Source of the DNA: Tubulanus polymorphus
Taxonomy: Eukaryota; Animalia; Nemertea
Length of the DNA stretch: 64,000 bases
Reading direction: 5' to 3'
Assembly: GCF_964204645.1 (NCBI RefSeq)
Contig: NC_134026.1
Location: 12,733,950 to 12,797,949, forward strand
The position numbers and the translations under genes were made by a program. Under the pieces are notes generated by a model. The model was not told the origin of the DNA. It was given only the letters and a program-made list of their open reading frames with translations, and ran no database searches. Positions 5,669 to 33,007 of the stretch are shown here, piece by piece (within the stretch, counting starts at the first letter, position 1; each line of letters starts with the position of its first letter).

Positions 5669-5747
5669 CTTAAAATATTCATATATATGAATAACATATA
5701 AATGAATAACTTCTAAAATCAATTTTAATAAAAAATTTGATATTTAA

Positions 5748-8700
5748 ATGGAAGCAAATAAGAAGTACTACTGTCCAATATGTAAAATCAATAAAGATAA
5801 ATCCCAAAAACCAAGACACAATAAAACTAGAACACATTTAGAAAATAAATTTAAGTTAGAATATAAAGATGATATATTAGAAACTAAATTAGATGAATTA
5901 AAGAATGAAAAAGAAACATACAAATGTGATTCATGTAATCAATCATTCAGTGATAAAAGATATTATAAAGAACATTTAAAATCTAAAAGTCATATTAGAA
6001 ATATGAATAATGATATTTTAGGTGAAGATTATTCTGATAAAGATAATGATAAGAAACCGAAGACAATTAAAAGAATAAAAAATAAATTAAACAATAAAAG
6101 ACCATACATGGAAGATGTAACAAATTATATTAATTCATTAGATAATAAAGAAGAAATAGAGATAACTGAAGTATTTAAAAGTGATATTGGTCCAGCAGCT
6201 ATTGAGTTTAAATTCCATAAAGGAAAAACATTAGAAGAAAATAAAAAACATTTGGAAAATATGAAAAATATTATAAAAATAATCACAGATGTTGGTATAC
6301 CCTAAAATTAGCATATCAGTTAAAGTAAAGTTTATAAAATCTGAAGATAAACCAATATATAATATAAATTCCCATTCACAACATATTATTTCAAAACAAC
6401 ATATAGATGAAAAATGAGATAAATGTTATAATGAAGTAAAAACTAAAATAGAAGAGAAATATTTTGAAGGATCAGGTTTAATATTCGATGAAATAATATT
6501 TATGACTTTACATGTTTATAGTTACAACACAAAATATAATAAGTTAACTAAATCAAAACCAATTGATGAAAATAATTCATCATATTATAAAGATAATAAT
6601 ATAAATGGATCAAGTTATATTAAACAAATGCTGTTATAAACGTATAAAATGAAGATAATAAATGTTTTCTATGGACAATTATAAGTTGCTTACATCCAGT
6701 TGAAGATTACAATAAACATACTTATAGATTAACAAATTATATACAATTTGAAAATAATTATAAGATAGACAATTATCCAGTTAGAATTAAAGATATCCCA
6801 AAAATAGAAAGATAAAATAATCTAAGAATAAATGTATTTGATTTAATCAAATTACCAAATACAAAAGGTGATAAAATTGAACACTATACATTAGAACCTT
6901 TGTATTTATCAAAAGATTATGATTCAAATGGTGTTATAGATATATTATATTATGAAAATCATTATATGTGGATAAAACAAATCGATTTATTTTTTAGAAC
7001 AGAAAATAACCACAATAAAATATATCTATGTAGAAAATGTTTAATAAATAGATTCAGTAATGAAAGCACATTATTAAATCATAAACAATTATGTGATAAT
7101 CATGATTATTGTAAATTATTTTTACCAAATGAAAAGGATAAAATATTAGAATTAAAAAAATATGATTACAAGAATAAAGTACCATTTGTAATATATGGAG
7201 ATTTTGAATCACTAAATAAAGAATTAACTTATCAAGATAGAAAAGAAATATATTATAAAAGAAAGAAATTAAATTCTAATGAAAATGATGTAATTGATTA
7301 TTCAGATCCCCTAATAACAAATACTATTAAAAAGATTCATCAATCAGCAGCAGCTTTCGGGTTATATATAAAATCTGATTATACCGAACTAATTAAAAGT
7401 GAATATTATAATTATAGAAATGAAAATGTTATCAATCATTTTTGTGACTTATTAATTGAGGATGAAATCAAATTTAGTAAAGTATTAGATACAAATAAAG
7501 AAATTATAATGACAGAAGAAGATAAAGAAGAATTTGAGTTTGCTGATAAATGTTATTATTGTGAAAAACTATTTAATTATAAAGATAAAAAAGTGAGAGA
7601 CCATGATCAATTGAATGGAAATTTTAGAGGCGCGGCGCACGAGAATTGTAACTTACAAGCTAAGAAAATCAATTTTGTTCCAGTAATATTTCATAATTTA
7701 TCAGGGTATGATGCACATTTATTCATCAAGCAACTGTGCCATAAGATAGAAGAAATCAATAATCAAATAGAAAGATTAAATTCATATAGATCAAAAGATA
7801 AAATACCAACTTATAAATTTAAAATGTTAGCTAAAACATCTGAGGATTATATATCTTTCCAATTTGGGTGTCTAAGATTTATAGATTCATATAGGTTTCT
7901 AGGTAGTTCATTAGATAATTTATCAAAATCATTAGTTGATGATGAATTAAAAATATTAAAGCAACAATATCCAAATAATGATGATTTTCAATTAATGAGA
8001 TATAAAGGCGCAATTCCATATTCATTTTACAAATCGCATTATGATTTCAATATAACTGAATTATTAAAAGAATGATTTTATGATGAATTAAAAAATGAAT
8101 ATGTTAAAGATAAAGTCTGTAATAGAACATTGAATATTTGGAATCATTTTGGAATGAAAAATCATGGACAATTAGTAGATTTATATTTAAAATCAGATGT
8201 ATTATTATTAACTGATATATTCGAAAGGTTTAGAGATGTAAACCTAGAATATTTTAATATTGATCCTTGCCATTGTTATTCTAGGCCAGATTTAACTTGG
8301 GATTTTGGTTTAAGATTTACAGATATAAAAATGGATTTGTTGACAAATATAGATCAATTATTATTATTTGAAAAATCTATAAGAGGAGGAGTTTCAGGTG
8401 TATTAGGTGATAGATATTTCAATGTAAATGATAACCTTGGATATAAGTTATTATATATAGATGCAAATAATCTATATGGTTGGGCAATGATGGAACCTCA
8501 ACCTTATGGAGTATTTGAAATAACAGAAGTTTTACAGCATGAAAATAATGATAAATTTGATTAGAAGAAAAGAATTCTAGATATTGCAGATGATTCAGAG
8601 ACTGGTTACTTTTTTGTTGTATATTTAGAATATCCTGAACATATTAAATTTAAATCTAGAAATCTAGCTTACTGCCCCGAACATAAAACTGTAACACATG

Positions 8701-9735
8701 AAGATTTATCAAATTACCAAAAAAGAATTAAACCTGAAAATCATATTCATACAGAAAAGTTAATGGTAACTCAGGAAGATAAATATAATTATGTAGTACA
8801 TTATAGAATGTTGAAGTTTTATTTGAATCAAGGAATGGTTCTAAAAAAGTACATAGATATATTTCATTTAGTCAATCTAAATGGTTAGAAAAATATATAG
8901 ATTTTAACACCAAACAGAGAACTAAAGCTAAAACTGATTTCGAGAAAGATTTCTTCTAACTAATGAATAATGCATTCTATGGTAAGACTTGTGAAAATAT
9001 CAGAAATAGAAATGATATTGAGTTAGTTAGCAATGGCAAAAGGATAAGGCATTTACAAACATATCCTAAGTTCATAGGTAACAGAATATTTGATGAAAAT
9101 CAAAGAAATTTGATGAAATATCAAAGCTATTGATGTATGAATTCTATTATAACGTGTTACAACCTCATTTTGGAGAAAAGCATATAGAAATCTTATATTT
9201 TGATACTGACAGTTACATATTAAAGATAAAAACTAATAACATAACAGATGATTTAAAAACATTAAAACATCATTTTGATTTTAGTAATTATCCTAAAGAT
9301 CATAAATTGTTTAGCAATGATAATAAAAAGGTGCCTGGTAAATTCAAAGATGAATTAGGAGGTGAAGAAATGATAGAATTTATAGGTATTCGATCTAAAA
9401 TGTATAGTTATAGAACTAAAACTCATGAAGCTAAAAAGTTAAAAGGAATAACCAAAAGTGTAGTAGAAAAGAATATTAATTTCAAAGATTACATCAATTG
9501 TATATTCAATGAAGAAGTTAGAAAACATAAGATGAAATGTTTAAGATCTGAGTACCACGAGATGTTTATTGAAGAGATAGAAGAGGTTAGTTTGAACCCA
9601 TTCGATGATAAAAGATATATTTTAGATGATGGTATACACACAGTTGCTTACGGTTGCAATTTAGATGAATACTTAAAATTTAAAAGAGAAGAAACAAAAG
9701 AGAATGAGATTATGAAAAGAATTCTAGCGTGTTAA
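5748..9735 (+). pseudogene. Protein-primed family B DNA polymerase with N-terminal zinc fingers and endonuclease VII-like insert; multiple stops/frameshifts
   Basis: C2H2 fingers, EGSG, NEDNKCF, KVRDHD..GNFRGAAH..CN, IFHNLSGYD, DSYRFL, YIDANNLYGWAM, LMNNAFYGK, YFDTDS and KKLKGI across ORFs 5748-6305, 6900-8075, 8130-8564 and 9130-9735. Confidence 0.93.
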
Positions 9736-9753
9736 TCAAATTTTAATAAAATT

Positions 9754-10107
9754 ATGTATTATAAACAAGCACACAGTGAGAACAACAAATCATTTCTAGA
9801 TAGAATAGAAGATACTTCAAATGTCAAATCAGTAGATTATAAATTTAAGAAGTTAAAAGAATTAATAATCCATAAGAAATATCTAATTAAAAATATTGAT
9901 ACAGTTACTAACAAATATGGAGATAAATTAGTTATCCACTTAGAATATGAATGATTAAAGGGAAATACATATAAATTCAGAAAATATTTACCAGATAGAT
10001 TTCATAGATTATCAAGTGACGATTTAGAAGAATTATGTTCAGGTGATTTCTATTTCATATACAAAGGTAAGAATGAAAAGGGGCACCATGAATTAGATTT
10101 CGAATAA
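9754..10107 (+). pseudogene. Small Polinton hypothetical protein (one internal stop)
   Basis: Frame continues past TGA at 9952-9954 to TAA at 10105-10107. Confidence 0.5.
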
Positions 10108-10124
10108 GAAAATATGTAAAATAA

Positions 10125-10550
10125 ATGGTAGAATTAAAAGAATATAGAATATTTGTTGATTCTAGAAAACTGTTAAATTCTAAATCACACAATTTACTAG
10201 TACAATTAGATAGAGAAGTTAAGAATTGTGTTGATTTAAAATTAGTAAATGTAAGTTTATGTAATTCTTTTTATAATATATCGGATAAAACTTTTGAACA
10301 TAGAGGGTTTATGATTTATATGAGAAATAAAGATAAATGGTTTCATCTATTTTTAAAACCAGGATTATATAATTTCGAATCATTAGCGCAGGAAATTAAT
10401 AGAAGAGCTCGGTTGAAAATCGGGGGAACTTCTGTATTTGAAATTAAATTTATTAAAATTGATAGTACTAATACAATAAGAATAAAGATAGCTAATGAAC
10501 AACATAAATTTATGGTAAACAAACCAATGGCTAAAATGTTAGGAATTAAA
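10125..10550 (+). pseudogene. Putative minor capsid (penton-like) protein, truncated by LINE insertion
   Basis: IFVDSR...VKNCVDLKLVNVSLCNSFYNI...PGLYNFESLAQEIN resembles penton/minor capsid N-termini; TAAATG start; composition changes at ~10551. Confidence 0.55.
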
Positions 10551-10601: not shown

Positions 10602-11295
10602 GGGTCTGACTATTTCAGATGGCTGGGAGTCACCTTCATTTCGGTCAACGAATTATACATCTAGACTTCACCTACGATGTAACGTAGCACAATACACTGG
10701 GTTCGAATCCCGTAAATCGTTCCACGAACTCGGTCCCTCAGCGCAATTCGTTCAAACAAAGTTCCCATTTTTTGTCTGAATGAAATTCAATTAAATGACC
10801 AATAGAAACTTATTTCCAATCAGGAGATCTGCTATCCAAAAGGAAATTCCTTAAAAAGTCCTCGTAAATTACATTCAACTTGAAGAAAAATATAAACTAA
10901 AACCATATATATGTACCATACAAACTTTTTTATTTCACAAATTTCTAAATTTGAATAAACACCACATTGTTCTGATATAAATCAACTTACACAATTTTAA
11001 AATTTGAATATACATGTACATAGTTCTGATTGACTTGGAAATTTGAAAATTGGATTACAACACGGCCTTACAGCATTTTAATAGTGCATACGGTTCAGAT
11101 GATGTTAGGTGACATTGAGTACAATATGGTGAATATTACAAGTCATTGATATACAAATATGGTGATTGTCAAACATTTCTCTACAACGATCGGGTTACTA
11201 AGATATAAAAAATTATTATGTGTAAAAAGTTAAAAAGCAAACCAAAATGGCCAAATTAGCTCACCTGTTGCCGAAGTGTGCAGAAAATAAATGTT

Positions 11296-11375
<80 letters not shown>

Positions 11376-12385
11376 GGTATATATATGCCAATGAGTCCAC
11401 ACATTTACAATGGACAAAAATTTTCCACAACTTTAAATGTTCCTATATTAAAATAATTAGCATATTTTTTATGTAACTAATCGACACCACATTTGTGCTG
11501 TGTAATGATCCCAATAACCATTATCAAAAATACATCATATACATGTTATATGGAGTATTAGACAAAAACATTAAGTCAAAAAGCAGTAAGTGAAAGAGAA
11601 AAAAGCATGTTGCACCCCCCAACAAAAATATGTTTTGGTATTAAGTCCATTCAGGTCAAGCATTTATAGAATTAAAAATATAACCAGAAAATTATAGTTT
11701 AAGTAGGCTAGGCCAAGCAAAACTGGCAGCTTGTCAAAGCGGCATCATAGGGGGGGGGGGCGATGAAGCATCTGCCCCCCATAATTTTGGTTACGACCAA
11801 ATTTTTTGTAATGATCACCATTAGGCTATATATTGTGATTTCGCTGAAATGAAATGAAGTGGTTTGCCCCAATAATACCCGTAATTCCGGTGACGCGCGT
11901 GCATGTATTAGCCTAGAGACATACGATCATATCGAAAAACAGTACAGGAAGGCTTATTCGTACTGGTGTATATATGCTGTTTGCGAGGCCATATGTCAAC
12001 ACGACAAGTGTTTTCTTAACACAACACTCATCAGCTTATAAGTTATTATACTGTACTATAGGCCTAGATAGATAGAACAGAAAACAATTAACAAGACTAG
12101 AGTCAGAGAGACATTAAAATTACGTACGGTAAAAGATAAACATACCACCACAATATTCAGAGAAATTTTCCTTCCACCAGACGCACCACTTAGTTCTTGA
12201 CTTCAATTCGTGTTCATTGATGAGTGATGACACCGCCATAAAATCATGACAATCATGACAACAATAAGACGGATCGGAAGATGAAGTTGAATCGTCCGCC
12301 ATTTTAGGTACGTAGGTAAAGTCTAAATGTATAATTTGCAGACCGAAATGAAGGTGACTCCCAGCCATCTGAAATAGTCAGACCC
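10602..12385. mobile_element. Non-autonomous Mutator-like DNA transposon
   Basis: ~75-bp TIRs (GGGTCTGACTATTTCAGATGGCTGGGAGTCACC... at 10602; inverse ending 12385); 9-bp TSD GTCAGCAAA (10593-10601 and 12386-12394). Confidence 0.88.
11299..11373. repeat. (TA)n microsatellite
   Basis: ~75 nt pure AT dinucleotide run. Confidence 0.99.
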
Positions 12386-12614: not shown

Positions 12615-14753
12615 ATGGCGCCACCCTCTCCTACTACACAACAGCACAGCGGAAGCGCTACTTCCGCCCTACTGTCGTTGTTGGACCTAGAAGAGATGCC
12701 AACGTCACAGGATGTTCTACGGCTGCAGTACTTAACTCTTGCTCGTGAAATACACCCAGATAGGAATAATTCTCTGGACTCGACCTCTAAATTCCAAAAA
12801 TTGAATGCAGCGTATATTCAATTGCGAGAAATATTGCATAACAGTCAAATTTCATCACCGTCAGGCAGTGACAAACGTCGAAGATCCTTCCGCGAGGACG
12901 ATAACGTCGGTATTCCAAACAAAAGTATAAACATTAGTGAGAAATCGCAGTCACTCGTTATTGATCTTTCGCATTGCAAGGACAAAATTAAGCTATTTCA
13001 CTCGGAATTTAGATCGCAGTATGGAAACCCTGTTGATAGAGGGGATCATGGCGTACATTTCAGCGGTGTGTATGTTGACACTCAAAACATTGCATTGGGA
13101 ACGGTACACATTACCTTGTATAAGGGATCAACTAAAAAATCTCCGAAACTACACATTCAGGGTTCCTCCTACTTAGTTTGGCTAAGCGAGGCCTTACCTC
13201 AGTTGTTGGAGAGAATCTTCAAGAAAGTTCCATCGCAATCTGCGTTATCCGTGAGTTCTTCAAAGCAGAATGACAAAAAATCCTGCTGCTCCGCATGCAC
13301 CGGGCCGGACACGAACAGCATGATCCAATGTTCACTATGCGAAGGTTGGACCCATAACAAATGCACCAGCCTGTCGAAAAATGAACTAGCACTTGCGACA
13401 TCAGATGTTAGAGAGCTCTATATATGCAACCCCTGCGGCACCGCACTTACAGTAGCGCCGGCCAGCGATGCTAGTTCGGGGCACGCGTGCGCATCGAACA
13501 AGACAGAAGCACAAATCCAAACTGAGCCACAACCTTCGAATACTCGTACCGCTAGTTGTCAAACCGATATGACAGTAATTGACGGTGAAGACATAATGAA
13601 TATGTTTAACTCGATGCAACAATCAACGGTAAACTTATTGCAGCAGGTAAATCAATGCTCACAGTCTTCTCAAATAAAACAGCTGCAACAAAAACTTGAA
13701 GATTGCACAAAACGCGTAGACCACATCAACGAACTAATGGTCGCAGTGAGTGAAACGGCTAAGACAACTGAACATTTAAAGAAAATCTCGGACCGGAGTG
13801 TTAACCGCACACGCGATATCTTACAGAAAGTCTGTAACACAGAAACTAGACTCGATAACCTGCAAGATATAGCCTCGAAATCGCTTGAGGCCATCCAAAC
13901 GTTTCAGTCACAAGGAACCGACCTTGATGACAAATACTCTATGATATCATCGACGTCGTCACTAGGATTATACGGGGACAACGAAGAATCTAAATCGAAG
14001 CCAGCCGGAAAAACTGTGCATAATCTAACGCGCCGCAAAAGAGATAAGTACCGCGAGGTTCACAACAATACGTATTACAATCAGCTAGAACGCCCCTTGT
14101 ACAGTGAGAGGCGCCATGGACTGGAAAATAGATGTGACAAATATCCGCCGGAAATATCTAGAGAGAGCAACCGTGATATCCGTGACAACACAAATCCGCC
14201 AGAACGCGTGCGTCGCCAAAATAATGTGTTTATCATCGGAGACTCGAACATCCGATATATCGACACTAACCGCTCTGTGAACGATCAATGTCAGGTTGAA
14301 AAATTTACGGCGTATACAATTAAAGAAGCAGGGCAAGTTGTCGATAGAATTAGAAGCGAAAACCCTGCATGCATCGTTTTGCATGTTGGTAATAACGATA
14401 TCCGAAACCTACATTGTGCCAATACCTGTGTAGATCGCTTTGTTAGCCTTGTGAACAAAATTAAGTTCTACTTCCCAGATACACGATTGGTTATTTCCCA
14501 GATACCGCCTAGATTCGACCATCAAAGTCTTGGTGACCAGTCTGCAACCTTTAACTATACCGTCGAATCGCTTGCAGCTGCAGATAAAAATGCTTACGTT
14601 ATTCGTCACGACAACCGGAATGACCGACGTCGATACTACAGAGACGACCTCCACATTAACAACAAGAACGGTATAAGGCAATTTGCGAACAATCTAGCCA
14701 CTGGTGTAAGACGGGCTCTAAAATTATTTACCCGTCCAAGAATACATAATTAA
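12615..14753 (+). CDS. LINE ORF1p: J-domain (DnaJ, HPD) + PHD finger + coiled coil + SGNH esterase
   Basis: LRLQYLTLAREIHPDRN..KFQKLNAAY; CSAC...MIQCSLCEGWTHNKC...YICNPC; IIGDSN, LHVGNND, DDLH; uninterrupted 712 aa. Confidence 0.9.
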   Translation: MAPPSPTTQQHSGSATSALLSLLDLEEMPTSQDVLRLQYLTLAREIHPDRNNSLDSTSKFQKLNAAYIQLREILHNSQISSPSGSDKRRRSFREDDNVGIPNKSINISEKSQSLVIDLSHCKDKIKLFHSEFRSQYGNPVDRGDHGVHFSGVYVDTQNIALGTVHITLYKGSTKKSPKLHIQGSSYLVWLSEALPQLLERIFKKVPSQSALSVSSSKQNDKKSCCSACTGPDTNSMIQCSLCEGWTHNKCTSLSKNELALATSDVRELYICNPCGTALTVAPASDASSGHACASNKTEAQIQTEPQPSNTRTASCQTDMTVIDGEDIMNMFNSMQQSTVNLLQQVNQCSQSSQIKQLQQKLEDCTKRVDHINELMVAVSETAKTTEHLKKISDRSVNRTRDILQKVCNTETRLDNLQDIASKSLEAIQTFQSQGTDLDDKYSMISSTSSLGLYGDNEESKSKPAGKTVHNLTRRKRDKYREVHNNTYYNQLERPLYSERRHGLENRCDKYPPEISRESNRDIRDNTNPPERVRRQNNVFIIGDSNIRYIDTNRSVNDQCQVEKFTAYTIKEAGQVVDRIRSENPACIVLHVGNNDIRNLHCANTCVDRFVSLVNKIKFYFPDTRLVISQIPPRFDHQSLGDQSATFNYTVESLAAADKNAYVIRHDNRNDRRRYYRDDLHINNKNGIRQFANNLATGVRRALKLFTRPRIHN

Positions 14754-14829
14754 TTTAATAACCACTACTGAAATTTGTTTATAACACTCCTCCGGTTAGG
14801 AAGAAGTCTCCTGCCTGAACGGAATAATA

Positions 14830-17800
14830 ATGCTCCTACTTAATATATGTGCATGGAATATACATGGTCTCTCTAGCCAGTACATGGATAAATTAAATGA
14901 TGTATGTTTCCAAAACCTGGTAAAACCATATGATATTGTATGTCTTACGGAAACCCATACCGGTGAAGATTTTATCCCCCAACTTGACGGCTACTTTACG
15001 ATCCAGAGAACGAAACCCACATATTAATAGGAACTACGGCGGTATTGCAATTCTATGTAGAGATCATCTAAAAAAGCAGATTAGAGTGACCGAGAGGCCC
15101 TCCTCAGAAATAATCTGGCTAAAATTCACAGAATATCCTAAATCTAGACCTATCTTCATTGCTATATGTTACCTCAGCCCTCTAAATTCATCATTTGGTG
15201 TAAAAAAACTCAGAGGAAAACTTTGGGATATTGGAGCGTGGATGTGTAAAGTACTCAAGCTTGGGGGAAGTGTTGCTTATAGGTGACCTGAACGCAAGAA
15301 CAGGATTGAAAAATGAATGTACCAATATTGATGAAAATGATAGAAAGTATCTGCCAGGAATATCAGAAATGAATTTGTCTATTCAGAATATCTCCCCACG
15401 GAGAAATAAGGATTGCACTACTAATAAAATGGGAAGAAACATTATCAATTTGTGTGAAGGCAATAATCTATGTATTTTAAATGGTCGTTGTCCTGGTGAC
15501 AGTTTTGGGGAATATACATGCCATCAATGGAACGGCAGTAGTGTGGTTGACTTAGCTATAGCCAATGAAAGCCTATATCCACGCATTAAATATTTCTATG
15601 TGCACCATCTGACTGAGCTATCTGATCATTGCGCTATTTCACTCGGCTTTGAATACAAAAGAGATGTACCTCCTAGACCCAAGAATTCCTCGGTTGGTCA
15701 GTCTAATTTTTATAACAAGCAATTTTCTAAACTCAAAGATGTAGAAGAGGTCAACTCTTACCTTTCTAATCCGGAAATATTGTGTAAATTAGATCAATTT
15801 CTTAAGGGTGAAATATGGACTACTGAAGGTGTAAATATCGAAACGTTAAATGAAATAGTGAATAATTTTGTATCCATATTGAATACCAATGTCAAAACAA
15901 AGGTTCAGAATCCTAAGGTGCAGAAGAATACCGGTAAGAAGAGTTGGTTTGATAAGGAATGTATGTCGTTGAAAAAGAACTTACAGTTAACAGGCAGAAA
16001 ATTACGTTATGAAACAGATGGGGAGAAAAGGCAGAAATATTTCATTTTAAAAAAACGATATAAGAAAACTCTTAGGACAAAACGTGCAATATTCAGACAA
16101 TCTGAGCTGTCAAAATTAACTTCGCTAAAATGTAGACCCAGGGAGTTTTGGAAAATTATCAAAAATCTAAACAAGGATGGTGAAAAACCAGTCAATGACA
16201 ATTATACCCCTAATTCTACGGAATTTATCAACCACTTTAAGTCGCTGAACGCTGCCAAAATTTGTCATGAAAATGTTGTCTAAGACAACTTACCTGAAGC
16301 CGACAATGTTTTTACAGAATTAGACTACCGGATTACTGAAGAAGAAATATCCAATGCTCTGTCTAAACTTAAAAACAGTAGATCCCAGGGCTTGATGGAA
16401 TAACTAACGAGCTACTTAAATATGGCAAAGACTACATTATCAAACCACTTGCCAAATTGTTCAATTTCGTTTACTCAAACGGTATATTCCCGACATCTTG
16501 GTCCGAAGGTCTTATTGTACCTCTGCTAAAAAAAGGCGACAGAACACTGCCAGATAATTATAGAGGAATCACACTGGGTAGCTGTTTGGGTAAAGCTTTT
16601 TGCCAGGTTCTCAATAACAGACTTAGTAATTACCTTATAAATTAAAACCTAATAACCCCCAACCAGATTGGTTTTATGCCAAAAAGTAGAACTACAGATC
16701 ACATGTTAACTTTAAAAAAACTCGTAGATTCCAAATTGTCCACCTCGGGTAAATTGTATTGTTGCTTCATAGATCTCAGGAAGGCATTTGACTCTGTATG
16801 GCATCAAGGTCTCATACATAAACTAAGAAAATCTGAAATTGGAAGTCACTTCAATAAAATAATTAAAAGTATGTATGAAAACATGACATGCCGTCTAAAA
16901 CTAGGACAATTTTCTGCATCTGATAAATTTGAGTCTTGCATTGGAGTACAGCAGGGGAACGTGTTGAGCCCCATGCTTTTTAACCTTTATGTGAATGATA
17001 TTGTATCGATTTTTGATGAAGAATGTGATCCAACCACCATTGGGAAATTACTTGTAAATTGTTTGTTGTACGCTGACGATTTGGTACTCGTGTCTAATTC
17101 GGAAAGGGGTCTCCAGAAATGTCTCGATAAACTGTCAAAATACTGTGAAACATGGAAATTAGAAATTAACACTGAAAAGAGCAAATGCATGATTTTCAAC
17201 AAGAAAGGACAAATGTCGATTCATTCTAAATTTTACCTAGGCAATCAAGAAGTTGATATTGTAAAAGAGTATAAATATCTTGGTTTGATGTTTTGTTCAA
17301 CAGGTAGTTTCCAAAGGGCTAGAGAGGAACTATTCAAGTCAGCGAGTAGGGCTATGTTTGCAGTACAGAGGTTAATAGGTAGCCAAAATTGCCCCCCTGA
17401 TATATCGCTCCAATTATTTGACACTCTAGTAACCCCTATACTCCTATATGGATGCGAAATATGGTTACCTAAGAGAAACTTAGCAAAACGAATCCATAAG
17501 AATATGGACAAAAAACCTTTTTACCTAGAAGAATCATTCGAAAAAGACGACCTAAACAAACTAATGGTTAGATTCTGTAAATATATTTTGATGGTCAATA
17601 AAAAAGCTACCAACTTAGCGGTTCTGGGCGAGTTGGGTAGACTACCTTTGTATATTAATGCATTTGTACATATTGTCAAATATTATAAACACCTGGTTGG
17701 CTCTGTAAATAGTATGGTAAATATTGTGCTAATGAACTTAGATGTAAATAGTGACTGGAATACCTTCCTGAAATGTATCATGACATTAACTAACTGTGAG

Positions 17801-23360: not shown

Positions 23361-23558
23361 CTGGATTATATAATGGAGCATTATTATCAGTTGGAACTGT
23401 TGGTTATTCAATGGTATAAAAAAAAGTATTTAAAATGGGAAGTGTTAATGTTGATAGATTTGATATAAATGATATTTTAAAATTAACATTAGCAGTTACT
23501 TTATTTAATTTAACTATTGATTATTTGGAAAAACAAAAATATATTCCTCCTATATAAA
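23361..23558 (+). pseudogene. Small Polinton membrane-protein gene remnant
   Basis: GLYNGALLSVGTVGYSMV..KVFKMG...DILKLTLAVTLFNLTIDYLEKQKYIP with one frameshift. Confidence 0.5.
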
Positions 23559-23580
23559 TGCATATTTTTTTGCTTAATAA

Positions 23581-24003
23581 ATGGAATCTGCAATTATAAC
23601 TATTATAGGATCGGCAATTGTTAACGCTTTAGCATTTACTGGTGGTGGTTATTTATTTAAGCATATTGATAAAAATGGTTCATTATCAGAACAAGAAAGA
23701 CATAATTTAGCATTAGAGAAATACAATAAAGCAGCAGAAGAATATAGAGAAAAGAGACAAAACTATATGGATTACATCAATAAAGAATTATATGATCAGA
23801 AAATTTCACATAGAGATTTTCAATCAGTCGATGATGCAATGAGTTTATATAACGCGGTAACCAATAAAGAAAAATTACATCTATACAAACCTAAATTATC
23901 AGATTATTATACCCCAAGTAAAGAACAACAGAAATATGAAATAATTTTGATTTTAGGTGGAACAGTTATTGTTATATTTGTAGCATATAAATTTACGAAT
24001 TAA
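23581..24003 (+). CDS. Polinton hypothetical protein with N- and C-terminal hydrophobic segments
   Basis: 140 aa; IGSAIVNALAFTGGGYLF, EQERHNLALEKY, C-terminal TM; TAAATG start. Confidence 0.75.
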   Translation: MESAIITIIGSAIVNALAFTGGGYLFKHIDKNGSLSEQERHNLALEKYNKAAEEYREKRQNYMDYINKELYDQKISHRDFQSVDDAMSLYNAVTNKEKLHLYKPKLSDYYTPSKEQQKYEIILILGGTVIVIFVAYKFTN

Positions 24004-24028
24004 TTATATATTATTTTTTGCTAAATAA

Positions 24029-24460
24029 ATGGATGATAAAATTGATGGTGTTAATATTATTCCCCATGATATAAATAAAACTTAATTAAAAACATATTTA
24101 GAAATACAAATATTAAAATGTGAAAGTGACTTAACGATAAAAAAGAAAAGATATTTAAAAAGTAAAATTATATATTATTTTATTATAAGTGGTTCAGTTA
24201 CAATTAGTTCTGTAATAACATTTCTAGCAATATTCAGTCCATTAACATCTTTAGCTATATCAATTGGTGTGCTAGGATTATCATCAAGTGTTTTAACTGG
24301 TATAAGTTCAAAATTAAATATAAAAAGTAATAAAGAAAAAATTAAAACTAATATTTAAAAAATTAATAAATCAAAAAACACATTAGATTATATAATGAGT
24401 TTAAATGGTCATATAACAGTTGAAGAACAAGATAAATTATTAAAAGAATTAATAAATTAA
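24029..24460 (+). pseudogene. Polinton two-TM membrane protein (internal stops)
   Basis: TAAATG start at 24029; IIYYFIISGSVTISSVITFLAIFSPLTSLAISIGVLGLSSSVL read through two stops. Confidence 0.55.
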
Positions 24461-24479
24461 TAATTTTTTAATTGTATAA

Positions 24480-25792
24480 ATGGGGTTTCCAAAAGCTTTC
24501 CAATATAATAAATCAATTAAATATAATATTCCGGCAGTAGATTTTAATAAAAATATTACATATAGAAATTTAGTTTTAAATTCATTAACTAATTTAGAAA
24601 TTTACGTTACTGAAACACAGTTTTTTATTTCTAAAATGGAAAATATATTTGATACATATGAAGTTACTTTTACTCGAGATGAATATCATATATATAAAGT
24701 AAAATATAATATGAAATATTCGCAGAATCAATTAAATTTTGCTGTTTATTGTGCAACAACTGGTTGTGGTGTAAGTTGGAATGATCATTTAAATAACTTA
24801 GATAAAAATTTGAATTATTCTGATTTAAAATTAATTCACACAATATTTAGATTTCACACATATTTTCAATTCAGAATGATATTAATTGAATTAGAATGTC
24901 CTTTACCCGGATCTAAATATTTTAAAGAATTGGATAATAATATTAATCTATCTAAGTTTTAATTTAAGTAGTAAAATATGTAATGAATTTAATATAAATA
25001 TTAATACCGATCTTAGAGCGCATGGTAAATAACAGGGTATTGGTGAACAGTATGAAATAAAAAGAATTGATTATATGCATAGAATTGGGGCTTATATATA
25101 ATTATAAAATTGATAATAATAATGGTTGGATTAATTTCATTTTAGAAAATAGTGAAGGTTTTACAAAATCAGGCATACAAAGAATGAATCAATCAATTAG
25201 AACTTATATGATATGTATTTTAGGTGCGCAAGTTGAAACAAGATCACCAATAGTTGGAAATGATAACACTTCATTTGATACACAGAAACAATTCAAAGTA
25301 TTATTTGAAGATTCCATTCATAATGATAAGAATAGATCGATTCCAGAAAACATTGTAAGATATCAAAATTATTTAGATAAATCACATATTAGATTAAATT
25401 ATTGTATAGGCCCTAATTTATTAATTATTTCTAATGATTTAGTATTAAAGATGGGAAATATTATTGGTTATAATAATTTGATTAAAACTGCAATAATAAA
25501 TAATAAGTTTGGATTGAATGATATAAATAAAAAGATTTTCACTGCTCCAAAATTAATGGAAGGTGAAAAAATTAAAAAACATATTCAATCAACAGAAACT
25601 AAAACTAAGAATATTAAATTGGATAATGATTCAAAAATAAAAGATTACAATACTACAGAAAATATAAAAACTGATAATATTCAACATGACATATTTAAAA
25701 CTGATCATGATAATAAATCCCATGAAAATGCTAAATTAGCTCTAACTTGTATAGGAATTGTAATCGGAGGAATATTATATTTTAAATTTTAA
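24480..25792 (+). pseudogene. Polinton hypothetical (probably virion) protein, split into ORFs 24480-24962 and 25067-25792
   Basis: QNQLNFAVYCATTGCGVS, FRFHTYFQ, GFTKSG..RMNQSIRTYMICILGAQ; C-terminal TM. Confidence 0.65.
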
Positions 25793-25802
25793 TTTTTTTA
25801 TT

Positions 25803-27288
25803 ATGCAAATGGAAGTAGAAGGTGGAGAAGATTATGAAATGGGAGAAATGGGAAATAATAATGATGGGTATATTGATGATGATTATAATGATGCAGAAAC
25901 TAATATTGATAATGATGATGGATCAGCGCTTAATTCTATTTTAGCAGAGAGCTTTGGTTCTAAAGGCCAATCAACAGATGAATTTGATAGAAGAACTAAA
26001 TCGAGAATAAATCCTGAAAATGAAAATCCAGATTTAGTAAAAAAAAGATTAGAATATAATGAATATATTTATAAATTCAAACTTGTATTTGAAAGATCTG
26101 GGTATAGTATAAATGATAGAGGCGCCAGACTTTTAGTAACAGAATTAAAATCTTTAGATGGTGAATATTACTATCATTTGAAAGATGATTATTATATTAA
26201 TATCACTTATAAAAATCAAAATAAAATATTAGCAGAATCAACTTCGAGTATTTTGGGCCATCTAGAATTAAAAGAATAAGTAATAATAGTAATGAAATAG
26301 AAAATGTTACACAAGAAGAAATAAATCAAAATAAAAGAGTATTTAAGACTATTTTAGTATTTTAGAAAGAATAAATGAATTATTTGTAACAATCAATAAT
26401 AATTTAGAAACAGAAACAACTTCTGAACAGAATATAACTTCCAAAACTAGTAAACTTAAATTAAACGAAGTTCAAACTGAAAAACTTTTACCGAATGGAT
26501 TACTTTATGCAACAGATCAAGAAATAGAAGCTTTAAGTATGTTTTCTGAAAAAACAATTAGAGAAATAATAAGTATACGAAATGAAGCCGATAAAATTGC
26601 ACGCAAAAAAAATATTAGATATAATAAAATTAAACCTTTAGAAAATAAATTATTTGACACCTGAAAAGAATAAGAACAATTAAAATTAGATAGAGAATTT
26701 AAAGTTATTGAAGAAATTGAATTTAAAAAAAGAAATGCATATTTAGAAAAAGAAATTGATGATTTAGAATATAACATAGAATTTCAGAAAGAAAAAATGA
26801 AATTATTATCAAAATCATATGATTATTGTATTAATGGATTAAAAGTTGTTGTTGAAGAGTTAATAATAAAACCAAATTCTAAAATATCATTGAAAGACAG
26901 AATAAAATTATTATTTAAGTTTGAAGGTATAACAATTCTTTCAATTGTAACAGCTGTAACTATGGTATTTACAACAATTGGTTTAGCTATATCAAATTCA
27001 TTAAAATCTACACAAATTCCGAATAAACCGGATAAACCACCTCCAAATAATAATTCTATACAAGATAAAGTTAAGGATGGTTTAAAACAATTAGCAAAAT
27101 ATTTATGGGAACTATCTAAAAAATCTGCTGCAGCTTTACCTGGAGTTATTGCATCGATTGTTGGTTTTGTTTTGAAATCTGCTGGGAATATTCTTAACTT
27201 TGCTGCTGAAAATATTATTTTATTTTTAATTACAGTTGTAAGTGCTATTATTTTTGGGTTAGTGAATATGATAAAATTAAATAATTAA
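25803..27288 (+). pseudogene. Polinton coiled-coil protein with C-terminal hydrophobic/amphipathic helices
   Basis: Acidic N-terminus, coiled-coil middle with stops, C-terminal ORF 26797-27288 (EGITILSIVTAV..., ALPGVIASIVGFVLK...). Confidence 0.65.
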
Positions 27289-27304
27289 TTTTTTTGTTAA
27301 ATAA

Positions 27305-28501
27305 ATGAGCGGGAGTTATATAAATCCTTCTAAGAATCCTAGAATATCTAATGCTATTAAAGCAGAAAGATCTCATCATATAATTACTCATAATCCTTCT
27401 AATATTAATCCTGATGAAACTATATATGTTAGAATCCCGAGATTAAATCAAAAATACTTTTTATGTTCCAAATAGTATTTATTTGTCAGCTGATATAAAT
27501 GCAACTGGTAATAATAATAATTATGTTGTTGATAATGTTGGAAGATATTTGATTAAAAAATTAACTATAAAGATTGGTCCAGAAACAGTTTTCTCATTAG
27601 ATGATTATAATTTATTTATGCATTATAAAGATTTATGGTTAACAAAAGAAAAAAGAAAACCAAAATAAATTAAGATCAGGAGCTAATGACGCAATAGTAA
27701 CTCGTACCGCAGATAATTTGATCAAAAAGATTTATGGAAGCAAACATATAATTCCATTAGATTTTGAATTGATAAATAATAATGCACCTTTATATAAATA
27801 CGCAATTCAAGAAGATATCCTATTCGAAATAACATTTGCTCCTGTTAATGAAATTGTATTATCTAGCGTTGTAAAAGATATGGGTTATAAATTATCGAAT
27901 ATATGCTTAGAATATGACACAGTAACTGATGAAAATATTTCAAGTATAATTCAAACTCAATACAATCAAGGATTTTCATTATTATATGATTATATTGATA
28001 AATTTAAAACTGTAACTATTGATGCAATTAATGCAATTATTAATGAGAATATTAACTTAAGAAGATCTATTAAAGGTATATTAATGTTTTTTACCATTGC
28101 AACATATTCTAATGGCACAATACAGGTCGATAATTATTATAATCCTGAAATAACAAAAGTAGAAATAACTACCGAAGGTATAGCAAATAAAATATTTTGT
28201 CAAGGAATGAGAATGATAGATCAGTGGCCAGAAATTATAAAACATTTTATGAATGAAAACATCTGAAAATTGTTATATTAATCAAATTGATTATTATACC
28301 GGTAATAAATATGCATTATGGTTAGATTTTAGAACAACAGAGGATAATTCATTACATGGTTCTGGAAAAAAACACTAAAGATGGAATACAATTATTCATG
28401 ATAAAGAATAAAGGAATCAAAAATTTTAAAATGCACATTTATATTATATCTGATGGCAATTAAATATCATAAATTCTCAATTGAATAGTGTTATGTATTG
28501 A
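27305..28501 (+). pseudogene. Major capsid protein (double jelly-roll, Polinton/adintovirus type), frameshifted
   Basis: THNPSNINPDETIYVRIPRL, VDNVGRYLIKKL, IPLDFE, LSNICLEYD, YYNPEITKVEIT, KYALWLDFRT..DNSLHGSG. Confidence 0.75.
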
Positions 28502-28533
28502 AATTTTAATTTTAATAAAAAAAATTATAATAA

Positions 28534-29684
28534 ATGGAAGGAGGAATATATGAAATACAAAGTCCAAGTGAAATGATATCAGATATATATTATATAATAC
28601 CTTATGATGAATACAGTAAGTATTTTGGATAATACTTTAATCAATTCAAATATAGAATAAGTAAAATAGATAATAATATTGAAACAAAAATAGAAGATAA
28701 TATTGAACCTAAAATAGAAGATAATATTGAATCTAAAACAGAAGATAATATTGATTCTACATCTAATGATAATGAAAATATAGATATTATACCTTCTACA
28801 TCTAATAATGATATAAAAGTTAAATCTGATACCAAAACCAAAAAGACAAATGAAAAATATTGTGACTTATGTAAGAAATATATATCATATAAAAATTGGG
28901 CATCACATAAGAAATCAAAGAAACATGTAGAAAAAGAAAAGAATAATAATCATAATAATATATCAGATAGTAATATAATAGATAACTTAATAAATACTGT
29001 TAATACAATTGAAACTAATGATACCATAGATATTATAACAGATAATGTAATAAATAATGTTAACCCAATTGAAACTTATTATAATGATATAACAGATAAT
29101 GAAATAATTGATGATTCTAAAAAACATGGTAACATTTGTAATTTAGATATTTCAAAAAGTAATTTTTCTAAACATAAAAAAAATCTCAAGCGCATATAGA
29201 AAATGAAAAGGTGTTAGAAGAACATGAAAAGAAATTAGAAGAAATAGAAAGAAATAAAACGTGTCAATATTGTAATAAGAAAATTGAACCTGTTGATGAA
29301 AATACTCATTATAAATCAACCATTGTTAAATAACCCAAAGAAATATATCAAATATTTTAATCCTAAAACTAAACAATATTATATATTCTATAAGCTGTTA
29401 TTTGATAAATTATTAGCTTATGCAGAAGATAATCCTGAACAAATATATAAATTATTATATTTTAGAAAAATAGATTTAAGTTATCTAATAAAAATTTTGG
29501 ATATCATTTTGATTTTGATGATTTTGATGAATACTTTGAAAGATTAAGAAAACAAGCTAATATACCTACTAATTATCGTTTAAAGATGGCTCGACTAGAA
29601 TTAATAAATCTACCTAAGAATTATGGTGAATTAGATATAAACAAAGATGATTTTATAAATGTATTAGAAACAAAATTAGAATAA
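28534..29684 (+). pseudogene. Polinton hypothetical protein with zinc fingers and KIEDNIE repeats
   Basis: TAAATG start; CDLCKKYISYKNWASHKKSKKH; 24-nt tandem repeats at ~28660-28760; several lesions. Confidence 0.55.
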
Positions 29685-30027
29685 TTATTATAAAACTATT
29701 TATATATCTATGTACTAGACGTACGTAAGAATCTTGGTAAGAATCTTGGCAAGAATTCTTACTCGTACGTCTAGTACATAGATATATAAACAGTTTCAGA
29801 ATAATTATTCTAAATATAAATTATATATATATTTGTTCCCCTGTGTAAACATAAATTATAAACATAAATTATAAACATAGTTTTAATATATAATTTATTC
29901 ATTATTATATATTTCATTAAATAATTTATATATCTATGTACTAGATGTACGAGTAAGAATCCAAGAATTCTTACTAAGATTCTTACCAAGATTCTTACTC
30001 GTACGTCTAGTGCATAGATGTATAAAT
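29676..30027. terminator. Pair of long hairpins (29676-29813 and 29924-30027) at the convergent junction of Polinton gene blocks
   Basis: Stem TTTATATATCTATGTACTAGAYGTACG/CGTACGTCTAGTRCATAGATRTATAAA occurs twice; loops built from AAGAATCTTGG/CCAAGATTCTT units; terminator role inferred. Confidence 0.7.
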
Positions 30028-30049
30028 AGTTTCTATAATCTTGCAAATT

Positions 30050-30625
30050 TTATTTTATAAATTTATATTCATAGGGAAATTGTAGTCTCAGAAGTAATTT
30101 TGAACCTTTATTATTCTTTAATTTATTCATATATTCATCATGTAATTCAGTAGGTATAATTTGATTTTCTTCCAATGATTGTTGCATAGATTTTCTATCT
30201 TTGTTATAAAATAAAACTAAAAATCTTATATTCTCCCTAAAGTCTTTAACAATTGAATTATATTTTTGATTTAAAACCCACGTTGTTATCCCAAAATGTC
30301 TCCCAGAGAAAGCTAGATAACATAACTCACTTTCTCTCACTTTTAAATCATGTAAATTTGCACAATCATCTATAATGAATAATGTATTTGATCCTTTATA
30401 AATATCAATTGCTATTTTAATACAATTATCTAAATTTTCTTTTACTGTTTTAGGATCTAATATAATAAACTTTTTTATCTTAACTATATCTCTATTATAT
30501 GTTTTATTCATTTCATAAGTGGTGCAGAATAATATTATATTATCAAAATGATTCTTATAAATAGTTTCTAACAAATCTAATATGAAATGTGTTTTACCAC
30601 AGTTTGTTACCCCAGTAACTAACAT
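30050..30625 (-). CDS. A32/FtsK-like DNA packaging ATPase
   Basis: Walker A GVTNCGKT, Walker B FIIDD, SGRHFGIT..LNQKY; frame open upstream to 30661. Confidence 0.9.
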   Translation of the reverse strand: MLVTGVTNCGKTHFILDLLETIYKNHFDNIILFCTTYEMNKTYNRDIVKIKKFIILDPKTVKENLDNCIKIAIDIYKGSNTLFIIDDCANLHDLKVRESELCYLAFSGRHFGITTWVLNQKYNSIVKDFRENIRFLVLFYNKDRKSMQQSLEENQIIPTELHDEYMNKLKNNKGSKLLLRLQFPYEYKFIK

Positions 30626-30656
30626 ATTATGCGGTTCAAATATAAATAAATCTTTA

Positions 30657-31739
30657 TTAATTTATTCTTTTAATTTTACTAGATAAAATCCATTCATTAA
30701 ATTTATCATCATACCCTTTATATTTCACGGAAGAATACTTGTTTCCTTTAAGAGTTTTTGTTTTCAATACTTTTTCTATTTTATATTCTATTTCATCTGG
30801 ATTTGGTACAAGCGATAATTCTTGTTCATAGAAATAACCTAATATTTCTTCATCTTTTAAATCTTCTAATTTATAAACAAAAGGTTGAGTTAATATTATC
30901 TTTTTAATCTTAAATATTTCTTCAGTAAAATTTGGAGTATAACCTTTATAAAATGTTTTTCGATATTTAGATATTCTGACATGTTGTCCAATTTTAAATT
31001 TAGGTTCTCCAAAATCATGTGTAACAAATACCCCATATAAATTATTCCAAACTATTTCTGAATTATCTTCTTTTCTAGCTTGCATAGGTTTTATATTTAT
31101 AGAACTACGTTTAGAATTATCATAACCTTTCACTAAATCATCTAACACATCGATATATTTATATGTTTCATTAGCAGAAAAATATTTCCACATTCTAGTT
31201 TTCAATGTTTTATTAAAGCTTTCTATAATAGATGCTTTTTTATCTGAGTGTGTTGAAAAATACTCTACATCGTTATCAGATAATAGTTTTTTAAAATGTT
31301 TATTATAAAATTCTTTACCTTCATCAAATTGTATCTTACCTGGAATAGCTTCTTTAAATATTGATTTAAAAGCATTTGTCACTTCTATTCCAGTTATATT
31401 TTTGGTTGGAATTGACCATGCGTATCTGCTGAATATGTCTATAACATTTAATATCCAGAAATATCCTTTGTTGTATTCTTCTAAGTTCTTCATGTCAATT
31501 AAATCAGCTTGCCATTGGTGATCGATATATGAAACCATAACTTTTCTTGTTAAATAATCTTTATCCATTTTCTTATGGATTTGATTTTTTGGTTGATTTT
31601 GTAACCATAATTTTAACTCACTATATTTTATATTTTCTTTATCAGATTTAATTTTATCCCATAATTCTGTAACGCTAGAATATGATACTTCACTCTCTTG
31701 GTTACAATATAAATCTCTTAAATATTGTTCTTTTTTCAT
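30657..31739 (-). CDS. Retroviral-type (rve) integrase with C-terminal chromodomain
   Basis: WQADLIDM, IQFDEGKEF, KASIIESFNKTLK; YKIEKVLK...VKYKGYDDKFNEWI. Confidence 0.93.
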   Translation of the reverse strand: MKKEQYLRDLYCNQESEVSYSSVTELWDKIKSDKENIKYSELKLWLQNQPKNQIHKKMDKDYLTRKVMVSYIDHQWQADLIDMKNLEEYNKGYFWILNVIDIFSRYAWSIPTKNITGIEVTNAFKSIFKEAIPGKIQFDEGKEFYNKHFKKLLSDNDVEYFSTHSDKKASIIESFNKTLKTRMWKYFSANETYKYIDVLDDLVKGYDNSKRSSINIKPMQARKEDNSEIVWNNLYGVFVTHDFGEPKFKIGQHVRISKYRKTFYKGYTPNFTEEIFKIKKIILTQPFVYKLEDLKDEEILGYFYEQELSLVPNPDEIEYKIEKVLKTKTLKGNKYSSVKYKGYDDKFNEWILSSKIKRIN

Positions 31740-32066
31740 CTTATTTCAATCCATTAATAATAATTTAGATTTAGTTTCAATTTTTTCAATTGACTTATTT
31801 TCTGGTATAATAGGTTAATCATCGGAATCATTATTATTAGATTTATACTTATATTTATATATTACGCCGGAGAATATAATAATATATAAGTAATTATTTC
31901 TTCCACTATTAGAAGAATCAGATGGATTGTTATTTGAATTAATATCAGGTGATTCATTTATATCAGTTAACTTCTTTTTCTTAGCTTTTTTAATTCTGAA
32001 GATCTTTTTCCCAACTCCCTAGCCCATTTAATTTGTTTTTCAGATCTAGGCTTTTTTTAAATATCA

Positions 32067-32660
32067 TCACTCATTTATTTTAGTTAATTTTTGTTCTGAT
32101 TCATTTTCTGTTTCACCGTGTCGGTGTCGTACGGCACCATCTGTTTCGTTCTTACCTGATTTATATTCTATAGGCTTGATATTCGTAAATGTTATGACAC
32201 CAGTAGAAATTAATGTCATAACCGATCCTAATTGGAATGAAGCATATCCAACCCATTTTTGTAATTCAGTCATAACTAAGTAGTCATTTTTTAAATCAAC
32301 ATATAATTTATTTTCATCATTAATTGACATTAACCGGTTACATAATTTTGAATAACATTTGACAATACCATCAGAAATAGAATCATTTATTCTAGCTAAT
32401 CTTGACTCTTCATAAATCTTAAAATATTTTATTACTTTAGCTGGTTTCATGGCTAATTCTTGGAAAGTAATAAAAACTCTAGATTTTCCACCAGCAATTA
32501 ATAATTCTAGATGGTGGTTACAATATAAGTAGTATTCATAATCAATATTATTATGAACTTGAGCACAATTAGTAACAACTGTATCATTATTGCCAGTAAT
32601 GCCCAAATCCTCAATTGTCTTTTCAATATCAATACTATTCTTATTCAATTTCTTTGACAT
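32067..32660 (-). CDS. Polinton hypothetical protein
   Basis: 197-aa ORF with TAAATG start and one hydrophobic segment. Confidence 0.6.
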   Translation of the reverse strand: MSKKLNKNSIDIEKTIEDLGITGNNDTVVTNCAQVHNNIDYEYYLYCNHHLELLIAGGKSRVFITFQELAMKPAKVIKYFKIYEESRLARINDSISDGIVKCYSKLCNRLMSINDENKLYVDLKNDYLVMTELQKWVGYASFQLGSVMTLISTGVITFTNIKPIEYKSGKNETDGAVRHRHGETENESEQKLTKINE

Positions 32661-33007
32661 TTATATTAGGGAAAAAAGCGAAAAAAATATTATACCTTCA
32701 AATGATACTAGTAACTCTTTAGTTAATACTAGCTTAGTTAAGTTAAAAAATTCTAGTATTAACTAGATTTGAATAGCTATTTGAAGATATGTAATTTTCA
32801 TTCAAATCTTATCAAAATATAAAGTATTCTCTTTTTGAAAAGAACTATTAGAATTCTAATGAAATAAAAATAAAAATAATGGCTAGTTGAAGATATTGTT
32901 TTTTAAATATTTTTTATTTGAATTAGGATTCAATACCTCACTACTTTTGTCTATCTATAGGAGCAGTTAAAATAACTGTCCAGATAAGTCATTTCGGATT
33001 CTCGATA

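Follow-up and report, generated by a model that had tools for sequence, protein, structure and literature searches.

Which RNA polymerase reads the genes of a Polinton that lies integrated in an animal genome? The question is raised by 64,000 nucleotides of DNA from the nemertean Tubulanus polymorphus (NCBI RefSeq assembly GCF_964204645.1, contig NC_134026.1, positions 12,733,950 to 12,797,949; hereafter the window), in which a broken, multi-copy Polinton-type element occupies positions 5521 to ~33600. A sequence-only reading of the window had proposed that the genes of this element begin at a TAAATG motif like that of poxvirus late promoters, and that the element is a candidate virophage-like parasite of a pox-like virus. 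The ten TAAATG sites that it named are all present, on the plus strand at 5745, 10122, 22676, 23578, 24026, 24477, 27302 and 28531 and on the minus strand at 32663 and 32077. For nine of the ten, homology to relatives puts the gene start at the site itself or only a few codons away. We infer that 5745 is the start of the zinc-finger/polymerase open reading frame (ORF), of which it is the first ATG, with homology beginning only at 6630. The site at 22676 opens a small gene that is split by a 657-nucleotide insertion. Ten of the 15 window genes start with TAAATG, whereas TAA precedes 31 of the 589 other ATGs in the element (5.3%); the binomial probability of 1.3e-10 was computed for 10 of 14 genes and is of the same order for 15.

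The motif has an upstream companion. Runs of six or seven T, claimed to lie just upstream of most structural genes, are found at six of the ten starts (22676, 23578, 24026, 24477, 27302 and 32663) and before the variant hexamer at 25806, and are missing at 5745, 10122, 28531 and 32077. In the six starts with a T core, four T occupy positions -15 to -12 relative to the ATG. An A-rich stretch replaces the T core before the polymerase, putative penton and zinc-finger genes, and the start at 32077 has neither. Both of the one-base variants listed earlier, CAAATG at 25806 and TAAATT at 30664-30659, exist in the sequence, and the latter falls in the column where the ATPases of relatives begin. The window contains 13 copies of the spaced pattern TTT-N8-TAAATG, compared with 3.5 in shuffled sequences (none of 100 shuffles reached 13), and six of the 13 copies are gene starts. 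The genes had also been called intronless and extremely AT-rich. Alignments of the element with its relatives are colinear and show no sign of introns, their only interruptions being stops, frameshifts and insertions, and the GC content of the element is 23.6% (~76% AT).

Motif enrichment at ORF starts in intact relatives had been named as a check of the proposal, and the relatives show such enrichment. An ATPase alignment search yielded metagenome loci of 36-81% identity, of which the best 80 of 98 were used. Merging loci whose ATPases were 90% alike left 65 non-redundant loci, with 273 genes that have a closed 5' end and fall into 20 conserved families. Scans of viral-contig and genome-contig collections turned up no members of the family. 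Across the 65 loci, 173 of the 273 conserved genes start with TAAATG. In a non-circular form of the test, 113 of 132 other genes start with TAAATG in the 41 loci where the ATPase does so, compared with 10 of 73 in the 20 loci where the ATPase does not, and with a background in which TAA precedes 220 of 5377 other ATGs. TAAATG use is a trait of the whole element. The ATPase itself starts with TAAATG in all six close relatives (L001-L006); the integrase does so in L005 and not at its first ATG in L001 and L002.

The loci in which TAAATG starts are the majority number 46, with 164 of 177 starts by this circular count. Among the remaining 19, eight are fragmentary or decayed, ten are of a TATA type described below, and one (L076) has neither signal. 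An ATPase tree was built from these relatives only, comprising 53 of the 65 loci plus the window; the 12 others, with missing or short ATPase ORFs, were left out. It contains three TAAATG clades in which 41 of 45, 13 of 16 and 88 of 91 starts carry the motif. The tree includes four of the eight decayed loci, and each of them falls within a TAAATG clade. With decayed loci scored as 'other', the start-type label changes at least three and at best six times. Since kin share their labels, the tree documents clustering rather than co-evolution with helpers.

Base composition and tight gene packing might generate TAAATG with no promoter role, through a stop codon lying next to a start or through stop-start coupling. 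The element is 76% AT, and for 17 of the 164 starts in the majority-TAAATG loci the TAA is indeed the stop codon of the upstream gene. For the other 147 it is not: 56 come after an earlier stop, 10 fall within the upstream gene, 20 lack a neighbouring gene within 150 bases, and the remaining 61 are in head-to-head position, where the motif is present all the same. One overlapping gene pair in 19 loci accounts for 38 of these 61, each motif lying inside the coding sequence of the partner, and in three loci the integrase and ATPase start codons are 4-6 bases apart on a palindrome. The codon before the ATG is TAA in 164 cases, TAG in one and TGA in none, although 56 of 151 stop codons of these genes are TAG or TGA. 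The motif persists in loci of 38-45% GC, the upper figure being the highest that TAAATG loci reach; an equally AT-rich relative, L018 (20% GC), has it at none of four starts; and the upstream T core stands at a fixed distance. AT content plus TAA/ATG packing had been named in advance as the finding that would overturn the proposal. The counts refute this packing explanation unless starts were miscalled throughout, and we give it next to no credence.

The upstream T core is present in the relatives as well. When the ATPase and its overlapping partner are left out, 104 starts remain, and 82 of these have at least three T at -15 to -12, compared with 31 of 204 non-start TAAATG sites in the same loci. 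G is nearly absent from these four positions. Counted upstream from TAAAT, T is found at the 10th base in 82% and at the 11th base in 88% of the 104 starts, and the T core recurs in the integrase, capsid and other families. The signal is a T-rich core 9-12 bases upstream plus a TAAAT that overlaps the start codon, conserved in three ATPase clades and in all gene classes.

In vaccinia late promoters, according to the published description, the start codon is overlapped by a TAAAT that mostly has a G after it, and the 10th base upstream is a conserved T that is absent from intermediate promoters (PMC11980589). A T-containing core has been placed 5-7 bases from TAAAT(G/A) (PMC5294985), the core viral polymerase is reported to read TAAA directly (PMC12917281), and slippage gives rise to poly(A) leaders (PMC6211774). 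Salmon gill poxvirus genes have been annotated with TAAATG too (PMC4542343). The family shares with vaccinia the TAAAT on the start codon, the T at the 10th base among other T's, an ATG followed by G or A (88% of 164 starts), and a templated leader that is very short or absent. It differs in that the motif precedes nearly all genes, including integrase, ATPase and capsid, of a ~16 kb element that has no RNA polymerase. The spacing fits the vaccinia late promoter; a poxvirus helper is favoured, and promoter activity is predicted.

A second type of upstream region is seen in the clade of the window, where TTTAATAAAA lies ~20 bases before TAAATG at the polymerase, zinc-finger and putative penton genes. 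Sites of this type are at 5724-5750 and 28511-28536 in the window, at positions 541 and 11030 of L001 (the closest relative), and in L002 and L005. The stretch resembles the A-rich vaccinia intermediate promoter, and it also holds a host poly(A) signal. By a strict rule this intermediate-like, A-rich-core class accounts for 4 of 178 starts, all in the clade of the window.

The element appears to bring no transcription enzymes of its own. Within the sensitivity of Pfam, searches at E 0.001 of 99 frames from the window and 92 from seven relatives gave no match to RNA polymerase, capping enzyme, TBP or TFIIB, which makes the polymerase of a helper virus the likely reader. On the sequence evidence, we think it reasonably probable that the promoters are read by the polymerase of a co-infecting large DNA virus of poxvirus type, and that the family is a virophage-like satellite. 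The sequence-only reading had named a cytoplasmic pox-like or nucleocytoplasmic large DNA virus (NCLDV) RNA polymerase. An NCLDV-type polymerase is the best explanation of a two-part signal in an element with no transcription enzymes of its own detected; the poxvirus identity is less secure, as iridovirus-like viruses also use TAAATG. Its further suggestion, an unrecognised large DNA virus of this animal, is conjectural as regards infection of the host today: no helper gene was seen in the window.

In the mechanism that we propose, the helper would replicate its DNA first, and its late machinery would then start transcription within the AAA of the motif. Slippage in this AAA would add a poly(A) leader, and so provide a 5' untranslated region (UTR) for genes that are otherwise leaderless. 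The element's own polymerase, ATPase and capsid protein would turn out particles at a cost to the helper, and copies would enter the host genome through the integrase. Integrated copies would be silent in the absence of the helper, as is the case for mavirus, whose promoters mimic the late promoters of Cafeteria roenbergensis virus (CroV) and are silent until infection; there, nuclear entry of the late factor is hypothesised only (10.1101/068312). The mechanism would require a cytoplasmic polymerase to gain access to a nuclear copy. Polinton-like viruses (PLVs) do occur in entomopoxvirus occlusion bodies (PMC11296320). The antiviral role once suggested for integrated copies cannot apply to the window copy, because that copy is broken.

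Host RNA polymerase II offers a nuclear alternative, in which a host factor or a factor of the element would direct transcription and the likeness to poxviruses would be convergence or a relic. The element is after all integrated in many copies, several core genes have no assigned function, and three TATA-type relatives encode VLTF3-like proteins; however, neither TBP, TFIIB nor VLTF3 has a match in the window element or the scanned TAAATG relatives. None of the seven host transposon ORF starts in the window carries the motif. An initiator on the ATG leaves no 5' UTR unless slippage occurs, and T at -3 is a poor translation context. Signs of nuclear RNA processing are divided. The splice-donor-like GTAAG is mildly avoided in coding strands (observed/expected 0.72, z -2.7), which points towards nuclear transcription, and AATAAA is not (255 seen against 250 expected; 4.9 per kb in window ORFs), which points away from it, although the control for AATAAA, 11 against 14 in retrotransposon ORFs, is too small for strong inference. 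We regard transcription by the host polymerase as improbable. Scarcity of TTTTTNT (observed/expected 0.70, z -3.3) was considered separately as avoidance of an early terminator and was rejected, plain T runs being scarce as well, also in host retrotransposon ORFs.

No lytic virus would be necessary if the genes were transcribed by a poxvirus-related polymerase that a resident replicon, such as a cytoplasmic linear plasmid, supplied. Yeast virus-like elements provide the model, with such a polymerase, a TAAAN initiator and slippage leaders; their upstream element, however, resembles poxvirus early promoters and not a T core at late spacing (PMC6211774). No such replicon turned up in the analysis, and we hold this explanation to be very unlikely.

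The more serious difficulty is the identity of the helper. TAAATG alone cannot name it, because iridovirus-like giant viruses use the same initiator. Under this alternative the satellite mechanism is unchanged, and the helper is an iridovirus-related (Pimascovirales-type) or other unsampled NCLDV. We assembled a set of 36 non-redundant iridovirus-like loci from 80 fetched, 74 of which had a capsid ORF. In this set, 92 of 379 ORFs (24%) start with TAAATG against a 4.8% background, and T occupies the 10th base upstream in 60 of the 92. A motif scan of viral contigs brought out giant viruses with many TAAATG starts. Among them, bin G001, with its own Rpb2 and a capsid closest to Singapore grouper iridovirus (SGIV) and Melbournevirus, has TAAATG at 17 of 37 starts and, in unselected stretches, at 7 of 21 ORFs against a 3% background. 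An AT-rich stretch at -6 to -4 is common to the clade of the window (48 of 54) and these viruses (19 of 23), and iridoviruses infect invertebrates (PMC5294985). The remainder of the signal fits less well. In the iridovirus-like loci AAA is commoner than TAA before the ATG (121 against 92), only 2 of 33 capsid genes start with TAAATG, fewer starts have the T core (34 of 92, as opposed to 82 of 104 in Polintons; p 3e-9), and G follows the ATG in 16 of 92 compared with 52% in Polintons. The full anatomy of the signal favours the poxvirus type, and we consider an iridovirus-type helper unlikely, though well short of negligible.

The capsid genes of the iridovirus-like group (L279-L358, L123, L201-L206, L120 and L220) have an upstream arrangement of their own: a TCTT stretch is present in 21 of 33, and after it comes TATA or TAATA, present in 28 of the 33. 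This is possibly an undescribed late promoter of the group.

The TAAATG counts in the iridovirus-like loci and in G001 weigh against a poxvirus-type helper, and so do several other observations. Five window genes lack the exact motif: the small ORF at 9754, the gene at 25803, the ATPase, the integrase (31739) and the HNH-like gene. The integrase lacks it although its reading frame is still open. No helper gene lies in the window. Poxvirus hosts named in the accessible parts of the cited literature are vertebrates and insects only, and many of the relatives are metagenome loci whose hosts are not known. The poxvirus side of the match consists of published descriptions. The rule for calling starts, which took the first ATG downstream of a stop, is tilted somewhat towards TAA-ATG; by this rule 14 of 65 other ORFs of these loci start with TAAATG, some of them being real genes. 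Scans of viral contigs for the helper motif (80 analysed of 120, among ~650 stretches; 75 of 75) revealed no locus that came close to the Polintons, which reach 136 of 147 under an identical ORF rule; nor was any of these contigs recognised as a poxvirus, the presence of poxviruses in the collection not having been checked.

Part of the family starts its genes differently. In ten TATA-type loci (L016, L018-L023, L032, L037 and L061), which were picked after inspection, TATA lies within 22 bases of the ATG in 45 of 52 genes, compared with 246 of 1709 other ATGs. Two of them, L022 and L023, have 47-49% GC, and here TATA precedes 18 of 24 genes against 47 of 705 other ATGs, together with a T-rich core further upstream; L076 (54% GC), as noted above, has neither TAAATG nor TATA. 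In the ATPase tree the TATA loci form two groups and one long branch. VLTF3-like genes are found at L061:5746-6387 (E 1e-16), L022:5082-5579 and L023:6543-7052, the latter two under the cut-off, and L023:2448-2861 is a Bcl-2 gene. Neither VLTF3-like nor Bcl-2 genes were seen in the TAAATG-type loci that were scanned.

African swine fever virus (ASFV) late genes start at TA(+1)TA (PMC7163114). The TATA-type relatives, and not the window, resemble the ASFV late promoter in having TATA just before the ATG and, in L022 and L023, a T-rich core. They depart from the description of the ASFV p72 promoter in that their T core lies ~2 bases further upstream (PMC7163114, PMC5294985). Their pattern is also akin to that of the iridovirus-like capsid genes. 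A single set of genes that stands under either of two NCLDV-like start signals is the pattern expected of a satellite that changes helpers, and suggests helper switches within the family. A broader proposal is that, in this widespread and seemingly protease-less Polinton lineage, promoters record the helper (vaccinia type in most branches, asfarvirus/iridovirus-type TATA in others), that the helper was switched more than once, and that the copies are a fossil trace of a poxvirus-type virus in an invertebrate group with no known one. We put this forward tentatively, as a possibility that we find attractive but would not yet back. The polymerases cut across the start types: that of the window matches the polymerase of the TATA-type L061 (7356-11540) and has no tblastn match with that of the TAAATG-type L027 (138-4205). 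The L027 polymerase is the one typical of Pfam, and members of the family seem to have exchanged their polymerases.

How does the family compare with elements already described? It resembles mavirus and the endogenous virophages of Cafeteria in combining a DNA polymerase B of the protein-primed type (pPolB), an rve integrase and a double jelly-roll capsid, in host integration, and in promoters akin to the late promoter of a large virus (10.1101/068312). It differs from mavirus in its poxvirus-type motif, which is not the TCTA of CroV, in its animal host, in the protease, which was undetected, and in a helper dependence that is predicted from promoters. The entomopoxvirus-associated AHEV_PLV1/2, CBEV_PLV1 and Ca_PLV1 are likewise Polinton-like genomes tied to poxviruses in animals; unlike the window family, with its rve integrase and undetected protease, they have an adenovirus-type protease and either a tyrosine recombinase or no integrase (PMC11296320). 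This separation follows their published description. The main text of that paper contains neither 'promoter' nor 'TAAAT'.

With Mavericks/Polintons (Polintoviricetes, 'adintoviruses') the family shares pPolB, the rve integrase, an A32-like ATPase, a double jelly-roll capsid and many decayed copies (PMC8502044, PMC8097293, bioRxiv 10.64898/2026.06.19.733378). It is unlike them in that an adenain-type protease was undetected and in that the vertebrate layout has another gene order and does not match the predicted membrane proteins of this family. In the accessible text of these sources a virophage role of Polintons is raised as a possibility only, and no promoter motif is given (PMC8097293); group 2 elements are said to vary, and some ATPases derived from animals to fall outside the main groups (bioRxiv 10.64898/2026.06.19.733378); and the word 'promoter' is absent from the bioRxiv report as from PMC8502044 and PMC11131425. 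No report of a TAAATG or TAAAT start motif in Polintons was found in literature open without subscription. New here are the family-wide test, the spacing match, the TATA branch and the iridovirus-like rival.

The window copy carries the Polinton core: pPolB, an rve integrase, an A32-like ATPase and a double jelly-roll capsid protein, the capsid fold being taken from a model of the L001 protein. The earlier span of 5745..32663 does contain Polinton genes, though not without interruption, as ~11.8 kb of non-Polinton DNA (10.6-22.4 kb), including a long interspersed nuclear element (LINE), is inserted within it. At the left end, a 148-nucleotide imperfect hairpin occupies 5521-5668; read depth climbs here, with its maximum over 5584-5854. 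A right end with a matching inverted repeat was not found in the window, the last recognisable gene being the HNH-like one. The polymerase gene (5748-9735, plus strand) has an N-terminal zinc finger and several stops and frameshifts; PF03175 (E 3e-6) passes the cut-off in one piece, and tblastn matches the L061 polymerase over 6630-9654. It is followed on the plus strand by a small conserved gene (9754-10107; homologue of L001:125-469) that has one internal stop and a first ATG without TAAATG, and by a gene at 10125-10520 (start motif at 10122) that is truncated by the insertion at ~10.6 kb and is 50% identical to L001:565-1329. From its resemblance to such genes the latter is likely a minor capsid (penton) gene; it has no Pfam or PDB profile match.

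Five conserved genes, four with predicted membrane segments, lie between the insert and the capsid gene, all on the plus strand. The first is a small gene (22679-23557, T core and motif at 22665-22681) that is 89% identical to L001:1733-1960 and contains the 657-nucleotide insertion at 22704-23360; the insertion-free joint 22703-23361 is seen in 519 reads of DNA run X5, and other copies thus lack the insertion. Next come a 140-residue gene with hydrophobic ends (23567-24003 with its T core and motif) and a broken gene for a predicted membrane protein (24015-24457), whose L001 homologue has a weak SLATT match (E 0.0013). A frameshifted gene of ~440 residues with a C-terminal hydrophobic segment spans 24466-25792. 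For the 442-residue membrane-anchored protein, the predicted fold (predicted local distance difference test, pLDDT, 59) had no clear structural match, nor did profile and Atlas searches give one. The fifth, a broken gene of ~480 residues with C-terminal hydrophobic segments, spans 25791-27288 together with its T run and variant hexamer. The major capsid protein gene (27291-28495 with T core and motif, coding 27305-28495) is spread over several frames, and its pieces are 70-81% identical to the L001 capsid protein. The latter is modelled as a double jelly roll (pLDDT 87), which superposes on a capsid protein of Paramecium bursaria chlorella virus 1 (PBCV-1) with Z 26.6 and a root-mean-square deviation of 3.3 over 344 residues.

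A broken zinc-finger protein gene, with its A-rich upstream stretch, occupies 28511-29547 on the plus strand; the remaining genes are on the minus strand. They comprise the A32-like packaging ATPase (30050-30664; PF04665, E 9.5e-11), which lacks a start codon at the start column of its relatives; the integrase with chromodomain (30657-31739; PF00665, E 8.5e-8), an open frame with no TAAATG at its first ATG; a broken gene for a small basic protein (31815-32077); a conserved 197-residue gene (32067-32674 with T core and motif) for which profile and Atlas searches gave no function; and the HNH-like endonuclease gene (33008-33577), 35% identical to L005:1296-1811, which itself has a weak PF01844 match. 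An AT-rich cluster of nested inverted repeats lies at 29675-30033, between the convergent zinc-finger and ATPase genes. Pfam matched no protease family in either set of frames (99 from the window, 92 from seven relatives); a divergent protease, or one beyond the missing right end, is possible. In L001, a deoxynucleoside kinase gene (L001:10340-10981) with no close named viral homologue stands behind a full late-type motif.

With polymerase, capsid, ATPase and several other genes broken, the window copy is a dead fossil. It is one of many. In DNA run X5, read depth is ~450-700 over the polymerase compared with ~42 on the left flank, and the largest read class is 90-95% alike. From the excess depth and this read class we estimate at least a dozen diverged copies in the species, a lower bound, since the left flank might be repetitive too. 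In reads that come from other copies, junctions connect 5752, in the left-end promoter region, to 9762, in the small gene at ~9760, and likewise the end of that gene (10107) back to 5714, so the gene order at the left end varies between copies.

The element lies among BEL/Pao, Gypsy and LINE retrotransposons, of which BEL/Pao is indicative of an animal host. The LINE inside the Polinton (12615-18298) has an ORF1 with a DnaJ domain, a PHD finger and a GDSL-like esterase domain. A Gypsy-type element (557-5333, minus strand) adjoins the left end of the Polinton, and a BEL/Pao retrotransposon at 35874-42577 has identical 300-nucleotide terminal repeats and two long open frames. Three short elements with inverted ends, at 10602-12385 (75 nucleotides), 33651-33850 (36 nucleotides) and 47707-48464 (97-128 nucleotides), are probably non-autonomous DNA transposons.

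These results address how animal Polintons are transcribed and why their virions have gone unseen. If the late machinery of a helper is needed, the lineage would not be expressed before infection of the cell by the right large virus. The start motif would then predict the helper class for any endogenous Polinton, and in this family it would point to unsampled poxvirus-type viruses of invertebrates.

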